Positions 1-22,608 of a DNA stretch of 32,201 nt are shown one piece after another. Each line of letters opens with the position of its first letter. Within the stretch, counting starts at the first letter, position 1. The notes under the pieces are model-generated. The model was not told where the DNA came from and made no database searches. It worked only from the letters and a program-made list of their open reading frames with translations. Source of the DNA: an uncultured Candidatus Peribacteria bacterium (GTDB lineage Bacteria > Patescibacteriota > Gracilibacteria > UBA1369 > LOWO2-01-FULL-3); NCBI GenBank assembly GCA_964402735.1, contig CAYODN010000001.1:1-32201 (forward strand), given 5' to 3'. The position numbers and the translations under genes were made by a program.

Positions 1-698
1 CTTTTGTTTTCATCAAGCCCTTCACGTCCTTCAAAAATGAGTCCCTTACTATCAAGCATATTCACGTTTGAAAAACCATACTGCACAAGAAGCCTAGCGA
101 TAGCACTTCCGGCTGCCCCGGTTCCGGAAATTACCACTTTATTTGCTAAAGGGGATTTGCCTGTAAGTTTCAAAGAATTTATCAAACCAGCAAGCACCAC
201 AATCGCAGTACCGTGTTGGTCATCATGAAAAACGGGAATTTTAAGCCGTTTTTTAAGCTCGTTTTCGATATAAAAACAATTAGGAGCGGCAATATCCTCA
301 AGGTTGATTCCTCCAAATTGCCCGGAAATCGCCTCAACAATTCGAATAAACTCATCCGGATCTTTACTGTCCACACAAATCGGAAAGCTATCGATATCCC
401 CGAATTTTTTGAACAGCACGGACTTTCCCTCCATCACTGGAAGCCCCGCAAGGGCCCCGATATTCCCAAGCCCAAGCACCGCAGTCCCATCAGTAATTAC
501 GGCAACCATGTGGCTTTTCATCGTATAATCGTAAGCGGTGGTTGGATCTTTTTGAATTTCACGGCAAGGCTCGGCCACTCCGGGGGTGTAGTACACGCGC
601 AAATCATCACGAGTTTCAAGTGGCACGCTCGGACAAATATTGATTTTTCCATGCGCCTCTTTGTGCTTTTCCAGCGAGAGTTCATATATATTTCCCAT
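1..698 (-). CDS. NAD(P)-dependent malic enzyme, N-terminal ~232 codons (3' end lies beyond the window start)
   Basis: Absent from the ORF track because it has no stop inside the window. Reverse complement from ATG (696-698) reads MGNIYELSLEKHKEAHGKINICPSVPLETRDDLRVYYTPGVAEPCREIQKDP..MVAVITDGTAVLGLGNIGALAGLPVMEGKSVLFKKFGDID..GGINLEDIAAPNCFYIENELKKRLKIPVFHDDQHGTAIVVLAGLINSLK..VVISGTGAAGSAIARLL and stays open to position 1. These are classic malic-enzyme N-domain and GxGxxG NAD-domain motifs. Confidence 0.9.
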   Translation of the reverse strand, partial: MGNIYELSLEKHKEAHGKINICPSVPLETRDDLRVYYTPGVAEPCREIQKDPTTAYDYTMKSHMVAVITDGTAVLGLGNIGALAGLPVMEGKSVLFKKFGDIDSFPICVDSKDPDEFIRIVEAISGQFGGINLEDIAAPNCFYIENELKKRLKIPVFHDDQHGTAIVVLAGLINSLKLTGKSPLANKVVISGTGAAGSAIARLLVQYGFSNVNMLDSKGLIFEGREGLDENK

Positions 699-739
699 AA
701 TTTTTCTGTTATTGTGCACGGGATTTTAATCCTCTTTTT

Positions 740-961
740 ATGACTATTCAACCCGGACTTTATCGCCATTTTAAGGGCAAAGAATACGAAGTCATTGGAA
801 CGGCTCACCACAGCGAAACCCTCGAAGAATTGGTGGTTTACCGCGCCCTCTACACCTCTCCCGAATTTGGTGAAAACGCCCTCTGGGTCCGCCCCCTCGC
901 CATGTGGGAAGAGGAAGTGGAATTTGAAGGGAAGAGAGTTAAAAGATTCGAGAAAATCTGA
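740..961 (+). CDS. DUF1653-family small protein
   Basis: 73 aa. The YRHFKGKEYEVIGTAHHSETLEELVVYRALY..LWVRPLAMW pattern matches my memory of the DUF1653 family. It is divergent from the malic enzyme with only 41 bp between the start codons. Confidence 0.75.
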   Translation: MTIQPGLYRHFKGKEYEVIGTAHHSETLEELVVYRALYTSPEFGENALWVRPLAMWEEEVEFEGKRVKRFEKI

Positions 962-1080
962 ACGCCACAAGTAAATTATTGAATTTTAAAAGAGATCTCA
1001 AATCATTCTAAAAAGGCCTTAAGTTTTTTTTACAATCAAATTAATGGCTTATGAATGGGGATTTTTGAGAGCACTTTTGA

Positions 1081-1161
1081 GCAAAAAACGGCTTGGTCAA
1101 AATCGATGGATTTTGCGTTTTTTGCGAAACGAGGTTTGCTTTCAGCAGGAGAAAGCAAACC
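1081..1161 (+). other. Two consecutive perfect stem-loops in the largest intergenic region
   Basis: GCAAAAAACG (1081-1090) pairs with CGTTTTTTGC (1116-1125), a 10-bp stem with a 25-nt loop. GGTTTGCTTTC (1133-1143) pairs with GAAAGCAAACC (1151-1161), an 11-bp stem with a 7-nt loop. No T-tract abuts either stem, so neither is a textbook terminator. Confidence 0.35.
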
Positions 1162-1292
1162 GCTGCTCGAAAAAATTTTTATTCATAAGCCAAAGAGAAT
1201 CAAAAAAAATAAAACTGGGGCCTTCTTACGATCATTTTCTTGACAATAATATTTAATATCTCAAACTAAAGAAAATTCAAATCCTATTCAAA

Positions 1293-3497
1293 TTGCAAAA
1301 AAAGTCTTTTTCGACAAATCTTGAAAAAACTATCAGAATTCTTGTAAAGGTTCCTCAATCAAATGAACAAAAAGAAGACTCGATGAGTGCTTTTTTAAGT
1401 CTCATAAATAGGATGATTCCTGAAAAAGAACCAATCGGACTCGAAATTTTGGCTCACGATTCGTTTATGCGATTTATTATAGCTTTTCCGGAAAAGCTTC
1501 GAAACATTGTGGAATCAAACCTCTATGCACGTTTTCCAAATATAGAAATCTCAGAAATCGACGAAGGGTTTCCCTTCAAGACTTTAAAATTTGCGGTTTT
1601 GGAAATGAAATTTCATAAAAACGAATTCTTTCCTCTGGCCACTCATAAATCATTAAAAGAAAATTTCCTGAGAAATTTTGCGGCTTCCGTCGGCGATGTT
1701 TCAGATCCCGAAAAAATTCTTTTTCAAATAGTCGTAAAAAAACTTTCGAAAAAAACCTCATTTAGAAAATTAAAAATTCTTTATCTTAAGCTTTTAAAAA
1801 ATAAGTCTGAAAAACACCAAAAATATTACGAAAAAACTTCCGAGCCCCTTTTTATCGGGAAAATTCGTTTGATATGTTTTTCCGATACACATGAAAACGC
1901 CGTAAAAAAACTTAAAGCGACCCTCAAAATTTTCAAAGCCCTGGATTCAAGTGTTAATAAGCTTGAAAAAGATCGAATATCAATTTCTCCGCTTATCAAA
2001 TCAAAGGTCATAAATGCGAAAATTTCCAAAGGCCAACTTTTAAATTCCGATGAAATTGCGACAATGTATCATTTCCCTTATGTCGGAAGTTTGGTTGTAA
2101 ACGCGGTAAGCACCTCTTCAAAGCGTGCGCCCGCTCCCGATATTTTGCCTGTCGAAGGCGCATCACCTGCAAAAGATATTTCAATTTTCGGGGAGACTAC
2201 TTATCGAAACGAAGGAAAGCGCTTCGGGATCAAAAGAATCGATCGTAGAAGGCATCTGTATGTCGTTGGAAAAACCGGAAGCGGAAAAAGTAAACTTCTC
2301 GAATTATTGCTTATTTCAGATATTCAAAACGGTCATGGCTGTTGTCTTATAGATCCGCACGGTGACTTGGCGGAGGAATTGCTGAATTATGTACCGAAAG
2401 AACGCATAAACGATGTCGTTTACATAAATCCGTCCGACAAAGATTATCCGATAGCCTTTAATCCGCTTGAGCCGCTTATGGATTACGAAAAACGCCAGCA
2501 TTTATGTACTTTTTTCATCGCGATTTTTCGAAAATTATTTTCTGTAAACTGGAATCCGAGGCTTGAACACATTATTCGTTTTATTGTTCTCGCCCTACTC
2601 GAAACGCCTGATTCAAACATATTGGGTATTTCCCGCATTCTTTCGGACACTACCTTTAGACAGCGGGTAATAAAACACATAAAAGACCCGATTGTGAAAA
2701 GTTTTTGGACAAGTGAGTTTGCGGGATACAACGATAAGTTCGCTAATGATGCAATCGTGCCTCTGATAAATAAAGTCGGTCAGTTTATCGCAAACCCGAT
2801 TTTACGAAACATGATCGGTCAGCAAAAAAACGCACTCAATTTCGCAAAATTTATGGATGAAGGAAAAATCGTTTTGATCAATGTTTCAAAGGGAAAACTC
2901 GGAGAAGAAAACGCGGCACTTCTCGGATCCATGTTTATCACGAAAATTCAGGAAGCGGCGCTTTCGAGGGCCGGCATCAAGGAGGAACTTCGCCGTGATT
3001 TTTATTTCTATGTTGATGAGTTTCAGAATTTCGCCACGGACGCGTTTTCGAGTATTTTATCGGAAGCGCGAAAATATCACTTGAATTTGACCATAGCCCA
3101 TCAATATATAGCACAGCTTCCGGAAGATGTGAAAGCCACGGCTTTTGGAAACGTGGGCTCAATGATCGTCTTTCCCGTGGGTGGCGATGATGCGGCTTAT
3201 TTGCATAAAGAATTCGCACCCGTATTTACGGCGGAAGATATTATTAATCTTGATGTTCGGGATATGTACATAAAAATGTCGATAGACGGAAGACTTACAC
3301 CGCCTTTTTCAGCCAAAACCATCACGGTACCTTCCGCCACTCATAATTTTTCGCAGGAAATCAAAACGCATTCACGTCTTACATACGGTAAAAATCGCGT
3401 CTCTGTCGAAAACGAAATCGCAAAATGGACATCTTCTCAAACGGATTTTTCAGAGCAAATTTCAAAAAATTCCGGTTTCCCCGAGCCCTTGGTTTAG
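1293..3497 (+). CDS. Type IV secretion coupling-protein-like (VirD4/TraD/TrwB family) P-loop ATPase
   Basis: 734-aa ORF. Walker A is VVGKTGSGKSKLLELLLISD followed by CCLIDPHGDL. Walker B is FYFYVDEFQNFAT. LTIAHQYIAQL resembles the TraD/TraG C-terminal motif. The start is uncertain: TTG at 1293 or ATG at 1383. Confidence 0.75.
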   Translation: MQKKSFSTNLEKTIRILVKVPQSNEQKEDSMSAFLSLINRMIPEKEPIGLEILAHDSFMRFIIAFPEKLRNIVESNLYARFPNIEISEIDEGFPFKTLKFAVLEMKFHKNEFFPLATHKSLKENFLRNFAASVGDVSDPEKILFQIVVKKLSKKTSFRKLKILYLKLLKNKSEKHQKYYEKTSEPLFIGKIRLICFSDTHENAVKKLKATLKIFKALDSSVNKLEKDRISISPLIKSKVINAKISKGQLLNSDEIATMYHFPYVGSLVVNAVSTSSKRAPAPDILPVEGASPAKDISIFGETTYRNEGKRFGIKRIDRRRHLYVVGKTGSGKSKLLELLLISDIQNGHGCCLIDPHGDLAEELLNYVPKERINDVVYINPSDKDYPIAFNPLEPLMDYEKRQHLCTFFIAIFRKLFSVNWNPRLEHIIRFIVLALLETPDSNILGISRILSDTTFRQRVIKHIKDPIVKSFWTSEFAGYNDKFANDAIVPLINKVGQFIANPILRNMIGQQKNALNFAKFMDEGKIVLINVSKGKLGEENAALLGSMFITKIQEAALSRAGIKEELRRDFYFYVDEFQNFATDAFSSILSEARKYHLNLTIAHQYIAQLPEDVKATAFGNVGSMIVFPVGGDDAAYLHKEFAPVFTAEDIINLDVRDMYIKMSIDGRLTPPFSAKTITVPSATHNFSQEIKTHSRLTYGKNRVSVENEIAKWTSSQTDFSEQISKNSGFPEPLV

Positions 3498-19296: not shown

Positions 19297-19368
19297 TACC
19301 GGGATTTTGGTTTTTGTATAAACTGCCTGGATTCCCGGTAATTTGACAGATATCCGTAATTCCCGGTA
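19297..19368. promoter_or_regulatory. Three copies of an ATTCCCGGTA(AT) motif around the operon promoter (putative operators)
   Basis: TACCGGGATT lies at 19297-19306 in inverted orientation (9/10 match). ATTCCCGGTAAT lies at 19331-19342, abutting the -35. ATTCCCGGTA lies at 19359-19368, spanning the spacer and the -10 edge. The direct copies are 28 bp apart, and the motif is an imperfect palindrome around CCGG. Confidence 0.45.
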
Positions 19369-19372
19369 TAAT
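19343..19372 (+). promoter_or_regulatory. Consensus sigma70-type promoter TTGACA-N18-TATAAT
   Basis: TTGACA is at 19343-19348 and TATAAT at 19367-19372. The ATG at 19379 starts 6 nt after the -10, implying a leaderless or near-leaderless mRNA. The ORF track's TTG start at 19343 is the -35 hexamer itself. Confidence 0.6.
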
Positions 19373-19378
19373 GTAAAC

Positions 19379-20338
19379 ATGAAAATACATATACCAAATA
19401 GCGTGTGGCTAGGAAATTTGGATCCGTTTTTGCAAGGATTCGATCCCCGCAATCCAGACAAACTGGAAATTACATTTAATAAAAAATGGATAGCGATTCA
19501 TCCGATGGTTTTATCAATGATCGCAGCTCTTGGTATAGACATAAAGCCTTCAAAAATAAAGTGTGAAAAATTGGAAGCCAGGTCCAAGCATTATTTGGAA
19601 AGGATGAAATTATTTGATTTTGTTAAGATAAAATCGGGAATTTCCATCAAAGAACACGATCCTTCAGGTCGATTTATTCCTCTCACTCAAATAAAGGATT
19701 CGGCATCTTTAACGGAATTCATTACCGAAGTTACTCCATTATTGCATCTGGGGCCAAAACATGCGGAACCAATCAGGTACATAATGAGTGAATTGATTAG
19801 AAACGTGCTTGAACATTCAATGTCAAAAAATGGAGCTATCGTTTCCGCTCAATATTATAAAAAAAGTAACACAATTAGAATCGGGATTGCGGATACTGGA
19901 ATTGGGATTTGGAAGTCGATAAACGAGTCCCACAATCCAAGAACCGATATTGATGCAATTCGAATGGCATTAACTCCCGGCATTACCGGAACAACAAGAA
20001 AAGAAGGTGGCACCGACCGAAATGCTGGAGCCGGGTTATTTTTCATTAAATCAATCGCTTCCGTAAATAGCGATTTTTTTGTGATTTACAGCGGAAACGC
20101 ATTGTACAAGTTGTTAAAGCGCAAAACGAAAAGAATCAAACTGGAGGCTGACCCTTTTAAGGATAGACATTCAAAAAGAAGCGATTTGCCAATTTGGAAA
20201 GGAACAATCGTTGGAATAGACTTGTCTTTGGACACCAGCCAAGAATTTTCCTTGTTATTGAGCTTGATGAATAAAACTTTAAGGGAAGCCATTAAAGAAA
20301 GAAAAAAAGAAAGATATAAAAAACCACTATTCACATGA
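19379..20338 (+). CDS. GHKL/HATPase_c ATP-binding protein (RsbW/SpoIIAB-like) with an uncharacterised N-terminal domain
   Basis: 319 aa from MKIHIPNS. The N-box is SELIRNVLEHS, G1 is IGIADTGIGI, and G2 is NAGAGLFFIKS. No DHp/H-box or TM segment was seen. The N-terminal ~130 aa contains YLERMKLFDF and GRFIPLTQI. Confidence 0.75.
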   Translation: MKIHIPNSVWLGNLDPFLQGFDPRNPDKLEITFNKKWIAIHPMVLSMIAALGIDIKPSKIKCEKLEARSKHYLERMKLFDFVKIKSGISIKEHDPSGRFIPLTQIKDSASLTEFITEVTPLLHLGPKHAEPIRYIMSELIRNVLEHSMSKNGAIVSAQYYKKSNTIRIGIADTGIGIWKSINESHNPRTDIDAIRMALTPGITGTTRKEGGTDRNAGAGLFFIKSIASVNSDFFVIYSGNALYKLLKRKTKRIKLEADPFKDRHSKRSDLPIWKGTIVGIDLSLDTSQEFSLLLSLMNKTLREAIKERKKERYKKPLFT

Positions 20339-20625
20339 TACAAATAAAACTTTTTAAAAAAGTCGGAGAATTTGCTGAAAACAAGGATATTGCCAGAGAT
20401 TTAAGATTAAAAAAACTTATTCCGGCACTAAAAAAAGGAGAAAAAATAGTACTTGATTTTGAAAACGTGGAAGGGGCAACACAATCTTTCATTCATGCTT
20501 TGATTAGCGATCTTTTTAGAAAGTTCGGAAACGAATTTTTGGATCTGGTTGAATTCAAGTCCTGTAATGATACGGTAAAAGCAATAATTTCAATTGTCGT
20601 AGACTATATGCAAGAAAGTATATGA
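20335..20625 (+). CDS. STAS-like domain protein (DUF4325-type)
   Basis: 96 aa. KIVLDFENVEGATQSFIHALISDLF matches my recollection of the DUF4325 core (v.lDF.gV..is.SF..el). An ATGA overlap links it to the upstream gene. Confidence 0.65.
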   Translation: MIQIKLFKKVGEFAENKDIARDLRLKKLIPALKKGEKIVLDFENVEGATQSFIHALISDLFRKFGNEFLDLVEFKSCNDTVKAIISIVVDYMQESI

Positions 20626-21215
20626 AAAATTATTCAAAATCCAACTTCCTCAAGAAAAATTTCTCCGCCCTTGGCGCGGTATTTGGCTTGATTTTTTATT
20701 TTTTGCTTTTTTGGTTTTTTGTTTCCGCCTTAAATCAAAATACAGATACGAATTATTTGGATGTTTTTCTCAAAATTTCCGGAATCGTTTTTCCGATCTC
20801 AATAAAAAACACGGTTTTCTTCCCGCAAATCATAGCCACACATTTATTATTAATGACAGTCTATGCGACGGTTTTTTCGTTCATGTTCAAAAAAATAAAC
20901 AAAGGCTTTACGGATAATCTGCCACTCAAGGGGGGAGTGATTGCCTCCGTTTTTTATCTCGTGTCTTTAATATTTGCATTTACGCTTATTTTGAACCTAA
21001 CGGAAGAACACGTGGACACCATAATTCTAATCTCACTATTCACGGGACACGCCTACCCGGTTTTGTCGACAAAAATTATGTCCTCATCCCCTTACATCTC
21101 TTTCTTCGGGGTACTTTTCATCATCACAACCATATATTTCATTGTAGGTGCCACAATCGGAAAACTAGTCGAAATTAGAAAAAGAAAAAGAACGGCAATC
21201 GCAAATAAAAAATAA
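20622..21215 (+). CDS. Multi-pass membrane protein (~6 TM), function unknown
   Basis: 197 aa. Six hydrophobic stretches include FSALGAVFGLIFYFLLFWFFVSAL, IIATHLLLMTVYATVFSFMF and ISFFGVLFIITTIYFIVGATIG. The tail is basic (RKRKRTAIANKK). An ATGA overlap links it to the upstream gene. Confidence 0.65.
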   Translation: MKNYSKSNFLKKNFSALGAVFGLIFYFLLFWFFVSALNQNTDTNYLDVFLKISGIVFPISIKNTVFFPQIIATHLLLMTVYATVFSFMFKKINKGFTDNLPLKGGVIASVFYLVSLIFAFTLILNLTEEHVDTIILISLFTGHAYPVLSTKIMSSSPYISFFGVLFIITTIYFIVGATIGKLVEIRKRKRTAIANKK

Positions 21216-21216
21216 A

Positions 21217-22608
21217 ATGAAACACATCCTCGTTAAAAACATCACAAAGAATAATTTAAAAAATTTTTCGGTAAAAATTCCGCTTGAAAGTCTGGTGGCA
21301 ATAGTAGGCCCGAGTGGAAGCGGAAAAACCACTCTTGTAGATGAAGTGCTATACGAAAATTCTCAGAAAAAAACTTGGGACATAAAGAACCTTCCTAAAA
21401 AAATCGATATATTAAAGCAAAAAGTTGATTTGCCGAAAACCGCTAAAAAAAGCCTTGGCGAGTATAATTTTGAAATTTTGAAAAAGAAACTTGCCTCGGT
21501 TTCAAAAGATGATTTGCTTGTACTGGACGAGCCTTGCGCCGGTTTTTGCATGGAAGAACGAAACACGATTTTAAAAATGTTGAAAGAAAAAGTGAAGAAA
21601 GGCTATTCGATTATCGCAGTGGAACACAACAAAGAGATTATTAAAAATGCCGATTACGTGATAGAACTCGGTCCCGGAGCCGGTAAATACGGAGGAAAAC
21701 TCATTTTTGAAGGAAATATCGATGAGTTTAAGAAATCGGGAACAATCACTGCAAAACACGTTTTTAAAAATTCAAAACCGGACACGCAAAACATTTCAGC
21801 ACCGAACAAAAAGAGTGTTACTATCTCAAAAATCTCGGAAAGGAATTTTAAGGATTTTTCATTTTCTTTTCCTGTGAAAAAAACGGTTTGCATCACGGGA
21901 TGTTCGGGTGCGGGAAAAACCACACTTTTGGACATAGCGTACAGATCGCTTTTTAAAGGCAGAAACGCTTGGAAAATTAAACTTAAATCAGTAAGCGTAT
22001 CCGGTAAATCCTTTATTAGAAGATCATATATAGTGCCTCAGTCACCAATAGGCGAAAACCCTTCAAGCACACTTGGCACATATACCAAAGTTTGGGACAA
22101 TATACGTAAAAATTTTGCCGACACTGCAATAAAAAAAGGACTTAAATTATCAAAATCGGATTTTTTGGCCGATAAAAAAATTCTTAGCGGAGAAAAAAAG
22201 TTTTCTCCTGAAGTTTTAAGCGTAAAAATTTCAGGGAAAAACATTAAAGATCTAATGGAGCTCACAATTGACGAAGCGCTTGATATATTCAAAAAAGACA
22301 CTTTGATTACCCGAAAACTAAAATTTTTGCAGGAGGTTGGTCTTGGCTATTTGGTGCTTGGTCAAAAATCGAGCACTTTAAGCGGAGGCGAGGCTCAAAG
22401 AGTTCGAATTGCAAACATTCTTTCCAAAAAACTCGGCGACAGATGTTTATACATTCTCGATACTCCCACAAGAGGGCTTCATCTCAAAGATATTCCGGTG
22501 TTGATCGATTCCTTCAAAAAAATTATCTACAAAAACAACACGATCTTAATCGCTGACAACAGAGAGGAAATTTTTCATTTCGTTGATTTTAGAATCGATC
22601 TTAAATAG
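21217..22608 (+). CDS. Truncated UvrA-lineage double-NBD ABC ATPase lacking all zinc modules (mini-UvrA)
   Basis: 463 aa. NBD-I has GPSGSGKTTL, LLVLDEPCAG, IIAVEHNKE and VIELGPGAGKYGGKLIFEGN. NBD-II has ITGCSGAGKTTLL, the UvrA-diagnostic IVPQSPIGENPSSTLGTYTKVWDNIRKNFA, LGQKSSTLSGGEAQRVRIA, and LYILDTPTRGLH. There are no CxxC pairs anywhere. The protein ends at FRIDLK, before the GPEGG motif. Confidence 0.85.
   Translation: MKHILVKNITKNNLKNFSVKIPLESLVAIVGPSGSGKTTLVDEVLYENSQKKTWDIKNLPKKIDILKQKVDLPKTAKKSLGEYNFEILKKKLASVSKDDLLVLDEPCAGFCMEERNTILKMLKEKVKKGYSIIAVEHNKEIIKNADYVIELGPGAGKYGGKLIFEGNIDEFKKSGTITAKHVFKNSKPDTQNISAPNKKSVTISKISERNFKDFSFSFPVKKTVCITGCSGAGKTTLLDIAYRSLFKGRNAWKIKLKSVSVSGKSFIRRSYIVPQSPIGENPSSTLGTYTKVWDNIRKNFADTAIKKGLKLSKSDFLADKKILSGEKKFSPEVLSVKISGKNIKDLMELTIDEALDIFKKDTLITRKLKFLQEVGLGYLVLGQKSSTLSGGEAQRVRIANILSKKLGDRCLYILDTPTRGLHLKDIPVLIDSFKKIIYKNNTILIADNREEIFHFVDFRIDLK

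Follow-up and report, generated by a model that had tools for sequence, protein, structure and literature searches.

A half-size UvrA paralogue with one altered ATP site in a Candidatus Peribacteria genome

Can a UvrA protein that has lost half its length, together with the catalytic residues of one of its two ATP sites, still be a working gene product? The question is raised by an open reading frame (ORF) in a 32,201-nucleotide stretch of DNA from an uncultured Candidatus Peribacteria bacterium (GenBank assembly GCA_964402735.1, contig CAYODN010000001.1, positions 1 to 32,201), referred to here as the window. The ORF runs uninterrupted from ATG to TAG at positions 21217-22608 of the plus strand and has 463 codons. 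A prediction made from the letters of the window (the original prediction) had described its 463-amino-acid (aa) product as a half-size UvrA without zinc fingers, in which one ATP site is consensus and the other is triply degenerate. We call this protein mini-UvrA. Our data indicate that mini-UvrA belongs to a conserved family of UvrA paralogues with one canonical and one consistently altered ATP site, and that it combines two known ideas: an ATP-binding cassette (ABC) ATPase of the UvrA family, and a single degenerate site.

Architecture and family of mini-UvrA

The three strings that had been singled out as diagnostic of UvrA are all found in the translation of the ORF. Pfam reports generic ABC and P-loop domains only, and the best NCBIfam matches are the UvrA equivalog models NF001503 and TIGR00630, both far under the curated cut-offs for class I UvrA (319.2 bits versus 1147 and 318.3 bits versus 729.8, respectively). 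When mini-UvrA was searched against the PDB with phmmer, the top eleven matches were all UvrA proteins, led by T. maritima UvrA (3pih, E 2.6e-95); the class II proteins DrUvrA2 and Ecm16 matched with E values of 2e-71 and 1e-65, and ordinary ABC transporters appeared from approximately 1e-8.

The phmmer alignment with T. maritima UvrA defines what has been kept and what has been lost. Residues 1-53 of mini-UvrA correspond to T. maritima residues 1-53 (Walker A-I), residues 118-317 to 505-708 (the end of ATP-binding domain I, the linker, Walker A-II, and Q-loop II), and residues 324-445 to 743-863 (signature domain II and Walker B-II). T. maritima residues 54-486 are without a counterpart; they are replaced by residues 54-95 of mini-UvrA, so that approximately 430 aa of signature domain I are reduced to approximately 45. 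The stretch lost from signature domain I carries the UvrB-binding domain, the insertion domain, and the zinc modules Zn1 and Zn2. The third zinc module with its beta-hairpin (Zn3, T. maritima 708-743) has become a connector of 6-8 aa, and the chain ends with IDLK where T. maritima UvrA reads IIDLGPEGG. The alignment therefore agrees with the earlier description of the protein as half-size, zinc-finger-less, and stopping before GPEGG. Absence of any CxxC pair was correctly called as well, since the five cysteines of mini-UvrA (positions 107, 111, 225, 229, and 410) form no such pair and 112 of the 113 aligned family members likewise lack one. The distance between Walker A-I and Walker B-I, which had been put at approximately 50 aa, measures approximately 61 aa. 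Mini-UvrA has kept both ATP-binding domains of UvrA, a single helix from signature domain I, and, from signature domain II, the helical part that contacts DNA in UvrA; signature domain II is the best-conserved non-ATPase portion of the protein.

An AlphaFold model of mini-UvrA, built on an alignment of 113 sequences, had a mean predicted local distance difference test score (pLDDT) of 89.9 and a predicted TM-score (pTM) of 0.86. In the model, the residues that replace T. maritima 54-486 contain a single helix (residues 80-94), which is the sole helix remaining of signature domain I, and a short SLGE motif lies at its N-terminus; this predicted location is the proper place for an ABC signature motif. 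Foldseek comparison of the model with the PDB placed two engineered UvrA deletion proteins at the top, T. maritima UvrA delta117-399 (6n9l) and a UvrA deletion construct (3ux8), with TM-scores over the query (TMq) of 0.85 and 0.84. Structures of full-length UvrA, UvrA2, and Ecm16 followed at 0.67-0.83, while ABC-F and ABCE1 reached only 0.30-0.52. Together, the fold comparison and the sequence alignments indicate that mini-UvrA contains tandem nucleotide-binding domains (NBDs) of the UvrA type with a UvrA-type signature domain II.

We searched a collection of 5.8 billion proteins for homologues and obtained 1643 matches at E <= 1e-10. The best 120 of these 1643 matches are 341-495 aa long and 46-73% identical to mini-UvrA, nearly all of them covering 95-100% of the query, and the sources named among them are Falkowbacteria, Magasanikbacteria, Uhrbacteria, Parcubacteria, and Paceibacterota. 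The start and end of mini-UvrA recur in more than 110 cluster representatives of 448-495 aa, mostly from Patescibacteria. In alignments of 25 and of 113 members, the chains begin and end at common positions, and column identity averages 62-64%. The family is also strongly basic. Mini-UvrA has an isoelectric point (pI) of 9.73 and a net charge of +7.3 per 100 aa, the most basic among the 34 window proteins (window median +1.4), and the family has a median pI of 9.74 (range 9.2-10.1), compared to 8.55 for one canonical Patescibacteria UvrA and 6.19 for E. coli UvrA.

These data bear on whether the gene could be the remnant of a uvrA that is decaying or truncated, whether as a pseudogene, as a fragment left by the assembly, or as one part of a split gene. 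A length of approximately half a UvrA and scores far below the curated cut-offs are what such a remnant would give. An intact ORF, termini that are identical across more than 110 cluster representatives, 62% mean column identity with the catalytic motifs of one site invariant, and a confident and compact AlphaFold model are not, and the adjoining ORFs are unrelated to UvrA: upstream lies a multi-pass membrane protein without a family match, and downstream a dCTP deaminase. No second UvrA-like piece was present among the window ORFs scanned. The fragment or pseudogene reading, named beforehand as one way in which the prediction could fail, is ruled out by family-level conservation and identical termini, and we give it next to no chance.

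Compared to class I UvrA (E. coli, T. maritima, G. stearothermophilus, C. thermocellum), which is its best match in both sequence and fold, mini-UvrA has the same tandem ABC ATP-binding domains with the GPxxGxxGG motif (aligned to IDIGPGGGTNGG of T. maritima UvrA), the same signature domain II (LGQxxxxLSGGEAQR), and the same canonical proximal ATP site. It has lost Zn1-Zn3 together with the UvrB-binding and insertion domains, and also approximately 50 C-terminal aa and most of signature domain I; its distal site is without the catalytic Glu and His, so that it does not have the two competent ATP sites of class I; and it is much more basic and co-exists with a genuine class I UvrA. The engineered proteins 6n9l and 3ux8 are the closest structures since they lack the UvrB-binding and insertion domains and keep the twin-NBD core. 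The natural protein has gone further: it has also lost what was left of signature domain I, along with Zn3 and the C-terminus, and its distal site is inactivated, whereas both catalytic sites are retained in the engineered proteins.

Several smaller observations accompany the family search. No relative of mini-UvrA above 60% identity was found in phage and plasmid collections. In an exhaustive search of representatives, the ranking was led by duplicated UvrAs of approximately 1800 aa, whose bit scores are summed over stretches, and few 50%-identity mini-UvrA clusters outranked them (P0041, P0081, P0086, P0262). Scanning genome contigs with the family alignment returned generic Walker A matches and no genuine family member; the two best matches (L008 and L009) are full-size UvrAs. 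Two family members (P0052 and P0056; locus L144) come from metagenome-assembled genomes (MAGs) labelled Nanoarchaeota; the 10-kb context contains a TyrRS/TrpRS-type synthetase, an arginase, an SNase, and TctA, and either mis-binning or transfer between Patescibacteria and DPANN archaea may account for the label. The JGI name for a number of the half-size proteins (P0002, P0015, P0030-P0032, P0050, and others) is 'excinuclease ABC subunit A'; at NCBI they are called 'ATP-binding cassette domain-containing protein'. Labels of the former kind can mislead repair-pathway calls in Patescibacteria MAGs.

Unequal ATP sites and the dead-site clade

In UvrA, the proximal ATP site is formed by NBD-I and signature II, and the distal site by NBD-II and signature I (PMC12796330). 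We counted the motif residues of both sites in the 113 aligned family sequences. The proximal site is fully canonical: the G-x-S-G-x-G-K of Walker A-I, Q68, D104-E105, H137, and the LSGGE of signature II are invariant, as had been proposed for the query from its intact NBD-I (Walker A, Walker B Glu, and H-loop) and its intact LSGGE in NBD-II. At the distal site, G228, G233, and K234 of Walker A-II are likewise invariant. The catalytic position of Walker B-II, residue 416, is Thr in 83 sequences, Ile in 15, Val in 12, and Asn in 3, and is never Glu; the change from Glu to Thr noted earlier (LDTP) is thus T416 of the query. The His position of H-loop II is Asn in 110 of 113.

Two parts of the original prediction need adjustment here. 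Its ADN in place of EHN is right in that the His is lost, but the register differs, as the I-E-H of UvrA aligns with A-D-N, with Asn448 standing for His and Asp447 for Glu. Signature I, which it called degenerate, is altered but has not drifted: the remnant S79-L80-G81-E82-x-N84 is conserved at 96-98% (Ser in 111 sequences, Leu in 109, Gly in 111, Glu in 108, and Asn in 111), with the Ser and second Gly of LSGGE retained. The query version, SLGEYN, lines up with LSGGE in canonical UvrA and, in a 694-aa intermediate described below, with LSLGQ. 'Triply degenerate' therefore holds for the Glu and the His and overstates the case for signature I, which is a conserved SxGE variant. Realignment does not restore canonical residues, since these states are fixed across the 113 members. 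The changes are confined to one composite site, in which the Walker B Glu and the H-loop His are replaced, the partner signature is altered, and Walker A is kept. Our alignments support the asymmetry of the two sites as a fixed, selected character rather than decay, and the distal site can presumably bind nucleotide but without a catalytic base and His. That the site evolved and did not decay, as had been argued, agrees with the presence of the pattern in every member of the wider clade (bootstrap 100/100, see below); the site may also be regulatory, the function proposed for it.

ABC proteins with one degenerate site are known among the heterodimeric exporters TM287/288 and TAP1/2 and in CFTR. 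These carry defects of the same kind on one composite site (Walker B Glu, H-loop His, and partner signature), and Walker A is kept, as it is in mini-UvrA, so that ATP can bind without hydrolysis at this site while the other turns over. They are membrane transporters with unrelated substrate-handling domains, whereas mini-UvrA is a soluble protein of the UvrA type. In the searchable literature we found no report of a degenerate-site asymmetry in a soluble UvrA-type protein. With the mini-UvrA family, the 'degenerate site' principle known from ABC transporters would reach into the UvrA branch.

A point that the original prediction had not anticipated is that mini-uvrA co-exists with genes for the complete UvrABC system. 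Two loci (L084 and L125) have mini-uvrA, a 665-aa uvrB, and the start of a canonical uvrA on one contig; at L107, mini-uvrA is followed on a single strand by a 950-aa canonical uvrA and uvrC; and at L094, a shorter 392-aa relative lies 70 bp upstream of uvrB. Since canonical uvrA, uvrB, and uvrC are found on the same contigs, mini-UvrA is an extra paralogue and not the UvrA of the cell. In the pan-genome of Parcubacteria, the core contains uvrA in 14 of 17 genomes, uvrB in 17 of 17, and uvrC in 15 of 17 (Nelson & Stegen 2015, PMC4508563), and a 'second copy of uvrA' was reported in most Parcubacteria (OD1) genomes (PMC4508563). This second copy, which is likewise additional to core uvrA, uvrB, and uvrC, is probably of the same gene family as mini-uvrA; in that paper it is a gene name only, without architecture, motifs, or function. 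The kinds of UvrA described in the searchable literature are class I, class IIa/IIb, and duplicated UvrAs, and we found neither a half-size UvrA nor one with a degenerate site described there. The unexamined Parcubacteria gene is probably the only trace of the family in the literature.

We next describe the relatives of mini-UvrA beyond its own size class. Metagenome contigs were scanned with a DNA pattern for the family motif LSKKLGDRxxYxxDxP, which identified at least 80 loci, and size classes were assigned from tblastn and ORF inspection of these loci. There are three: 'mini' (approximately 465 aa), 'micro' (392-408 aa), and 'midi' (694 aa, at L095). A protein search added three more sequences of 550-572 aa (P0353-P0355). 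'Micro' loci include L094 (4086-5264), L074, L081, L092, L104, L108, L118, L136, L139, and L140, together with the proteins P0267-P0351. Their contigs mostly have a low GC content of 26-30%, with two exceptions at 40% and 53%, and where a source is named, it is a 'Bacilli bacterium' or 'Alphaproteobacteria bacterium' MAG. The distal site of the 'micro' proteins has FDNP and AEN, a changed Q-loop II, and in some members a partly eroded Walker A-II (e.g., GDMNSSKV). The 'midi' protein (L095, 3057-5141, minus strand) has CxxC pairs and a larger signature domain I than the 'mini' proteins, yet it carries LSLGQ, LDTP, and ADN. A search with this 694-aa form returned mostly canonical UvrAs and one relative only (P0364, 685 aa). 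To judge by its sequence, the L095 protein looks like a snapshot of an ancestral form in which the distal site was already lost.

Every protein of the wider clade (392-694 aa) has LD[T/N/I]P in Walker B-II, A-[D/E/S]-N in H-loop II, and an altered signature I (SLGE, STxEK, or LSLGQ). In contrast, LSGGE, LDEP, and IEH are present at both sites of E. coli UvrA, of one Chloroflexi UvrA, of one canonical Patescibacteria UvrA, of an 825-aa class II-like protein (L009), and of both halves of the duplicated UvrAs. We refer to the former as dead-site proteins; they are defined by LD[T/N/I/V]P, A-[D/E/S]-N, an altered signature I, KKLGDR after signature II, and monophyly, and mini-UvrA has all of these characters. 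A neighbour-joining tree on 392 shared columns, in which class II was represented by L009 alone, separated the dead-site proteins from all others (class I, L009, and duplicated UvrAs) with a bootstrap of 100/100. Both 'mini' and 'micro' are clades at 100/100, which answers the earlier call for a phylogeny of mini-UvrAs; they are not sisters, as 'midi' groups with 'mini' and P0353 with 'micro'. The query lies inside the 'mini' subclade.

These sequences would be most simply explained by a single inactivation of the distal site, in a protein of approximately 550-700 aa that still bore zinc, followed by independent loss of domains in two lineages with reduced genomes. If the distal site does not hydrolyse ATP, the zinc finger with its beta-hairpin and the movement of signature domain I become dispensable. 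The size series of 694, approximately 560, approximately 465, and approximately 392 aa would then record a stepwise, twice-independent loss of domains after inactivation of the site. A separate 663-aa UvrA-like protein with two canonical sites, P0356, is attributed to the dictyostelid Acytostelium subglobosum and may be a contaminant or a eukaryotic acquisition.

Class II UvrAs (D. radiodurans UvrA2, DrrC, and Ecm16) are paralogues without a UvrB-binding domain that exist beside a class I UvrA, and mini-UvrA shares these features, with the UvrB-binding domain absent and canonical uvrA on the same contigs (L107 and L125). DrrC is encoded together with the DrrAB ABC exporter, and this arrangement echoes the exporter neighbourhood of mini-uvrA described in the next section. 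Class II proteins are approximately 800-840 aa long (812-842 aa in PDB chains) and have zinc modules and a full signature domain I, whereas mini-UvrA has 463 aa and no CxxC. The sole class II-like protein examined, L009, has the Walker B Glu and the H-loop His at both sites, in contrast to the dead distal site of mini-UvrA, and this single class II-like sequence falls outside the dead-site clade at 100/100.

Neighbouring genes and candidate function

For a census of neighbouring genes, 86 loci were dereplicated at 90% identity into 57 groups. We found that a half-transporter with ABC_membrane and ABC_tran domains lies within three genes on either side in 12 of the 57 groups, compared to 0 of 300 genes further out (Fisher p 4.5e-5). 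This type-I ABC exporter is the sole recurrent neighbour of mini-uvrA. It often occupies the +1 position on the same strand, 6-77 bp away, and the exporters fall into at least three subtypes; examples of approximately 590-610 aa are found at L089 (151-1929), L076 (9231-11027), L006 (9541-11349), and L125 (5047-6840).

In the window, mini-uvrA is the last of four tightly packed genes whose junctions are 4-nt overlaps and a 1-nt gap. The genes upstream of it, for a GHKL protein, a STAS-like protein, and a membrane protein (Table 1), are probably co-transcribed with it in this genome only. The four-gene arrangement did not recur among 86 related loci. A conserved operon was rejected as an explanation, because five look-ups of long contigs gave unrelated, mostly housekeeping neighbours. 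Since the consensus promoter ends only approximately 7 nt before the ATG at 19379, the arrangement suggests a leaderless four-gene transcript. One PADLOC profile, that of DrmA (DISARM), is matched at its N-terminus by both the GHKL and the STAS-like protein.

Prior studies of UvrA provide a frame for what mini-UvrA might do. The most extensive DNA contacts of UvrA are made by signature II, and ATP-binding domain I mediates dimerisation of the protein (PMC12796330). Nucleotide is bound with high affinity at the distal site; with an E-to-A change in its Walker B this site still binds nucleotide, and the proximal sites hydrolyse (PMC6486640). Nucleotide binding at the proximal site requires that the distal site be occupied first, the distal site is closed and activated by the zinc finger and beta-hairpin of signature II together with movement of signature I, and Walker B mutants bind DNA tightly and lose damage discrimination (PMC12796330). 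Given that the zinc finger and hairpin promote distal-site activation, their loss in mini-UvrA is coherent with a dead distal site.

We lean towards the view that the gene is functional and belongs to a conserved clade of reduced UvrA paralogues that has so far not been classified, and that its product is a UvrB-independent, ATP-gated DNA-binding module with a structural ATP site; we hold this to be somewhat better than an even bet. The distal site, composed of Walker A-II and the SLGE helix, would hold ATP permanently and without hydrolysis, as a structural or licensing nucleotide. The proximal site (Walker A-I and LSGGE) would be the only catalytic site and serve as a single switch, where binding and hydrolysis of ATP might close and open signature domain II, the main DNA-binding element of UvrA. 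In this way a very basic protein would bind and release DNA under the control of ATP. Mini-UvrA has no UvrB-binding domain, and the genomes that encode it also encode genuine UvrA, UvrB, and UvrC; it is therefore most likely UvrB-independent, would not load UvrB, and would most likely act outside canonical excision repair. Its most likely role would be UvrB-independent probing or clearing of DNA, for example by displacing DNA-bound toxins in the manner of class II UvrAs, possibly coupled to the adjacent ABC exporter in some genomes. Ecm16 works without UvrB, UvrC, and UvrD and needs its ATPase activity, and it removes or neutralises DNA-bound intercalators without other Uvr proteins (PMC9328131). 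By this analogy, removal of DNA-bound ligands is our leading guess for the physiological role, and the exporter enrichment fits a 'strip and export' scheme, though only for a fifth of the groups. The architecture, the motif states and their conservation, the clade, the presence of UvrABC genes alongside, and the exporter enrichment are direct results of the analysis; retention of ATP, DNA binding, the oligomeric state, and the physiological role are properties that we infer for mini-UvrA.

Several points weigh against this reading. DNA binding by mini-UvrA is presumed from homology and charge alone, and the insertion domain and the Zn3 hairpin, both of which are implicated in DNA binding or damage discrimination by UvrA, are gone. 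Tyr55, at the dimer interface of C. thermocellum UvrA, is without a conserved counterpart in the family. The exporter is associated with only approximately 21% of the groups and is absent from this window, the 57 dereplicated groups are not phylogenetically independent, and gene neighbourhoods are otherwise unconserved. Finally, the family is nearer to class I (E 1e-95) than to class II (1e-65 to 1e-71) by phmmer against the PDB, which makes the analogy with Ecm16 and DrrC functional and not phylogenetic.

Three other roles were weighed against a UvrB-independent DNA-binding module. Mini-UvrA might instead be an accessory or modulator in nucleotide excision repair (NER) which forms a heterodimer with canonical UvrA through ATP-binding domain I, or serves as an alternative lesion sensor, and so tunes or competes with the search by UvrA and UvrB. 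The presence of uvrA, uvrB, and uvrC on the same contigs, the one-strand order of mini-uvrA, uvrA, and uvrC at L107, the position of the 'micro' gene 70 bp upstream of uvrB at L094, and retention of the ATP-binding domain through which UvrA dimerises (PMC12796330) would all suit such a role. Adjacency to NER genes is, however, seen in 2-3 of approximately 60 groups, near chance by a rough estimate, and neighbourhoods consist mostly of unrelated housekeeping genes; with the UvrB-binding domain absent and the interface Tyr55 not conserved, we regard a NER modulator as rather unlikely. A role off DNA, either as a soluble twin-NBD ATPase on RNA or ribosomes, like ABC-F and ABCE1, or as a regulator of the neighbouring ABC exporter, would account for the local enrichment of exporters and for the loss of UvrA elements implicated in DNA binding or damage discrimination, and the high positive charge would also suit RNA binding. 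This appears less likely still, as the similarity to ABC-F and ABCE1 (TMq 0.30-0.52) is far below that to UvrA (0.67-0.85), the best-conserved non-ATPase part is the UvrA-specific signature domain II, and the neighbouring exporters have their own NBD.

The window operon raises a further candidate role, in anti-phage defence, either as a component like Mad3 of MADS or as part of the local operon of GHKL, STAS-like, membrane protein, and mini-UvrA genes. PADLOC profiles for mad3 and mad8 match mini-UvrA (E 2.3e-40 and 1e-14), the upstream GHKL and DUF4325 proteins match the DrmA profile, and all four genes are closely spaced downstream of a consensus promoter. However, HHpred alignments of PDB homologues underlie the MADS profiles, which hence behave as generic ABC/UvrA profiles; no further MADS gene was present among the 7 proteins scanned. 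The operon is absent from the 86 related loci, contexts elsewhere are housekeeping, and no close relatives occur in the phage and plasmid collections, so that a defence role seems very improbable to us. Membership in MADS as Mad3 was rejected, since the profile is generic and the mandatory partners mad6, mad7, and mad8 are missing, with none of the 6 neighbouring proteins scanned matching a Mad profile.

Returning to the UvrB-independent reading, a bolder version of it would make the whole dead-site clade a distinct DNA-surveillance machine of reduced-genome bacteria: a minimal clamp with one structural and one catalytic ATP that pries ligands or proteins, such as intercalating toxins and stalled factors, off DNA without UvrB, and that in some members of the lineage is coupled to a dedicated ABC exporter in a two-step 'strip and pump' form of resistance. 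We offer this as a speculation with perhaps one chance in several of being right; if true, nature has already run a separation-of-function experiment on the two ATP sites of UvrA. The division of work between the proximal and distal sites during the search for damage is still debated (PMC6486640, PMC12796330). The mini-UvrA family represents a natural, strongly conserved UvrA core in which the distal site appears permanently non-catalytic and every accessory domain is removed, and it might serve as a minimal system in which to ask what one catalytic site and signature domain II do on DNA.

Feature map and the rest of the window

The features of mini-uvrA and of the genes directly upstream are collected in Table 1. 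One family-specific segment, KG(K/R)NAWK, is without a counterpart in canonical UvrA in the PDB phmmer alignments inspected.

Table 1. Positions of features in the window (counts refer to the 113 aligned family sequences)
Feature	Position	Strand	Basis
Consensus promoter TTGACA-18-TATAAT	19343-19372	+	12/12 consensus match
GHKL/HATPase_c-like gene	19379-20338	+	Pfam
DUF4325 STAS-like gene	20335-20625	+	Pfam
Membrane-protein gene, no family match	20622-21215	+	ORF list
Complete mini-UvrA gene	21217-22608	+	UvrA best by PDB phmmer and Foldseek; homologues with identical ends
Walker A-I GPSGSGKT, proximal, catalytically competent site	21307-21330	+	G31, S33, G34, G36, K37 invariant
Q-loop I glutamine Q68	21418-21420	+	Invariant, 113/113
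Signature I remnant SLGEYN, distal-site partner of Walker A-II	21451-21468	+	Conserved in the alignment
Walker B-I LLVLDE, catalytic Glu105, then Cys107	21514-21531	+	D104, E105, C107 invariant
H-loop I E136-H137	21622-21627	+	H137 invariant; E136 111/113
UvrA-type GPxxGxxGG, end of ATP-binding domain I	21670-21696	+	G152, P153, G156, G160 invariant
Walker A-II GCSGAGKTT, nucleotide-binding loop of the putatively non-catalytic distal site	21898-21924	+	G228, G233, K234 invariant; G231 111/113
Family-specific basic/aromatic KG(K/R)NAWK	21955-21975	+	K247 113/113; G248, A251, W252, K253 >=90%
Q-loop II glutamine Q275	22039-22041	+	112/113
Short connector replacing the Zn3/beta-hairpin insertion of signature domain II	22165-22188	+	T. 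maritima alignment; no CxxC
Signature II LSGGE, proximal-site partner of Walker A-I	22378-22392	+	Invariant
Walker B-II YILDTP, catalytic Glu to Thr416	22450-22467	+	Never Glu; canonical UvrAs LDEP
H-loop II A446-D447-N448, His to Asn	22552-22560	+	N448 110/113; register fixed on the preceding NT
C-terminus FRIDLK and stop	22588-22608	+	Members end I-x-L; UvrA goes on with GPEGG and approximately 50 residues

Two cysteines of mini-UvrA are themselves conserved. Cys107 (21535-21537) is invariant directly after Walker B-I (DEPCAG), where UvrA has Ser or Thr, and Cys225 is conserved in more than 90% of the family.

Between approximately 7700 and 29100, the genes of the window are nearly all on the plus strand and encode small enzymes. 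They include five GNAT acetyltransferases (7713, 8243, 14539, 17631, and 18734), NUDIX hydrolases (11549 and 25154), a nucleotidyltransferase (9813), a HIT protein (13238), a dCTP deaminase (22693), a methyltransferase (24220), a nucleoside 2-deoxyribosyltransferase (25634), an aldo/keto reductase (26059), a Fic protein (27408), and a laccase-like protein (28340). By its gene content, the region resembles an accessory island devoted to detoxification and nucleotide sanitation. No RNA family reached the Rfam threshold in the window. At the other end of the window, a 734-aa HerA/TrwB-like ATPase (1293-3497) lies in a stretch of higher GC content (0.45 at 1-1000 and 0.42 at 2001-3000, compared to approximately 0.34 elsewhere), and positions 1-3497 may be the remnant of a mobile element.

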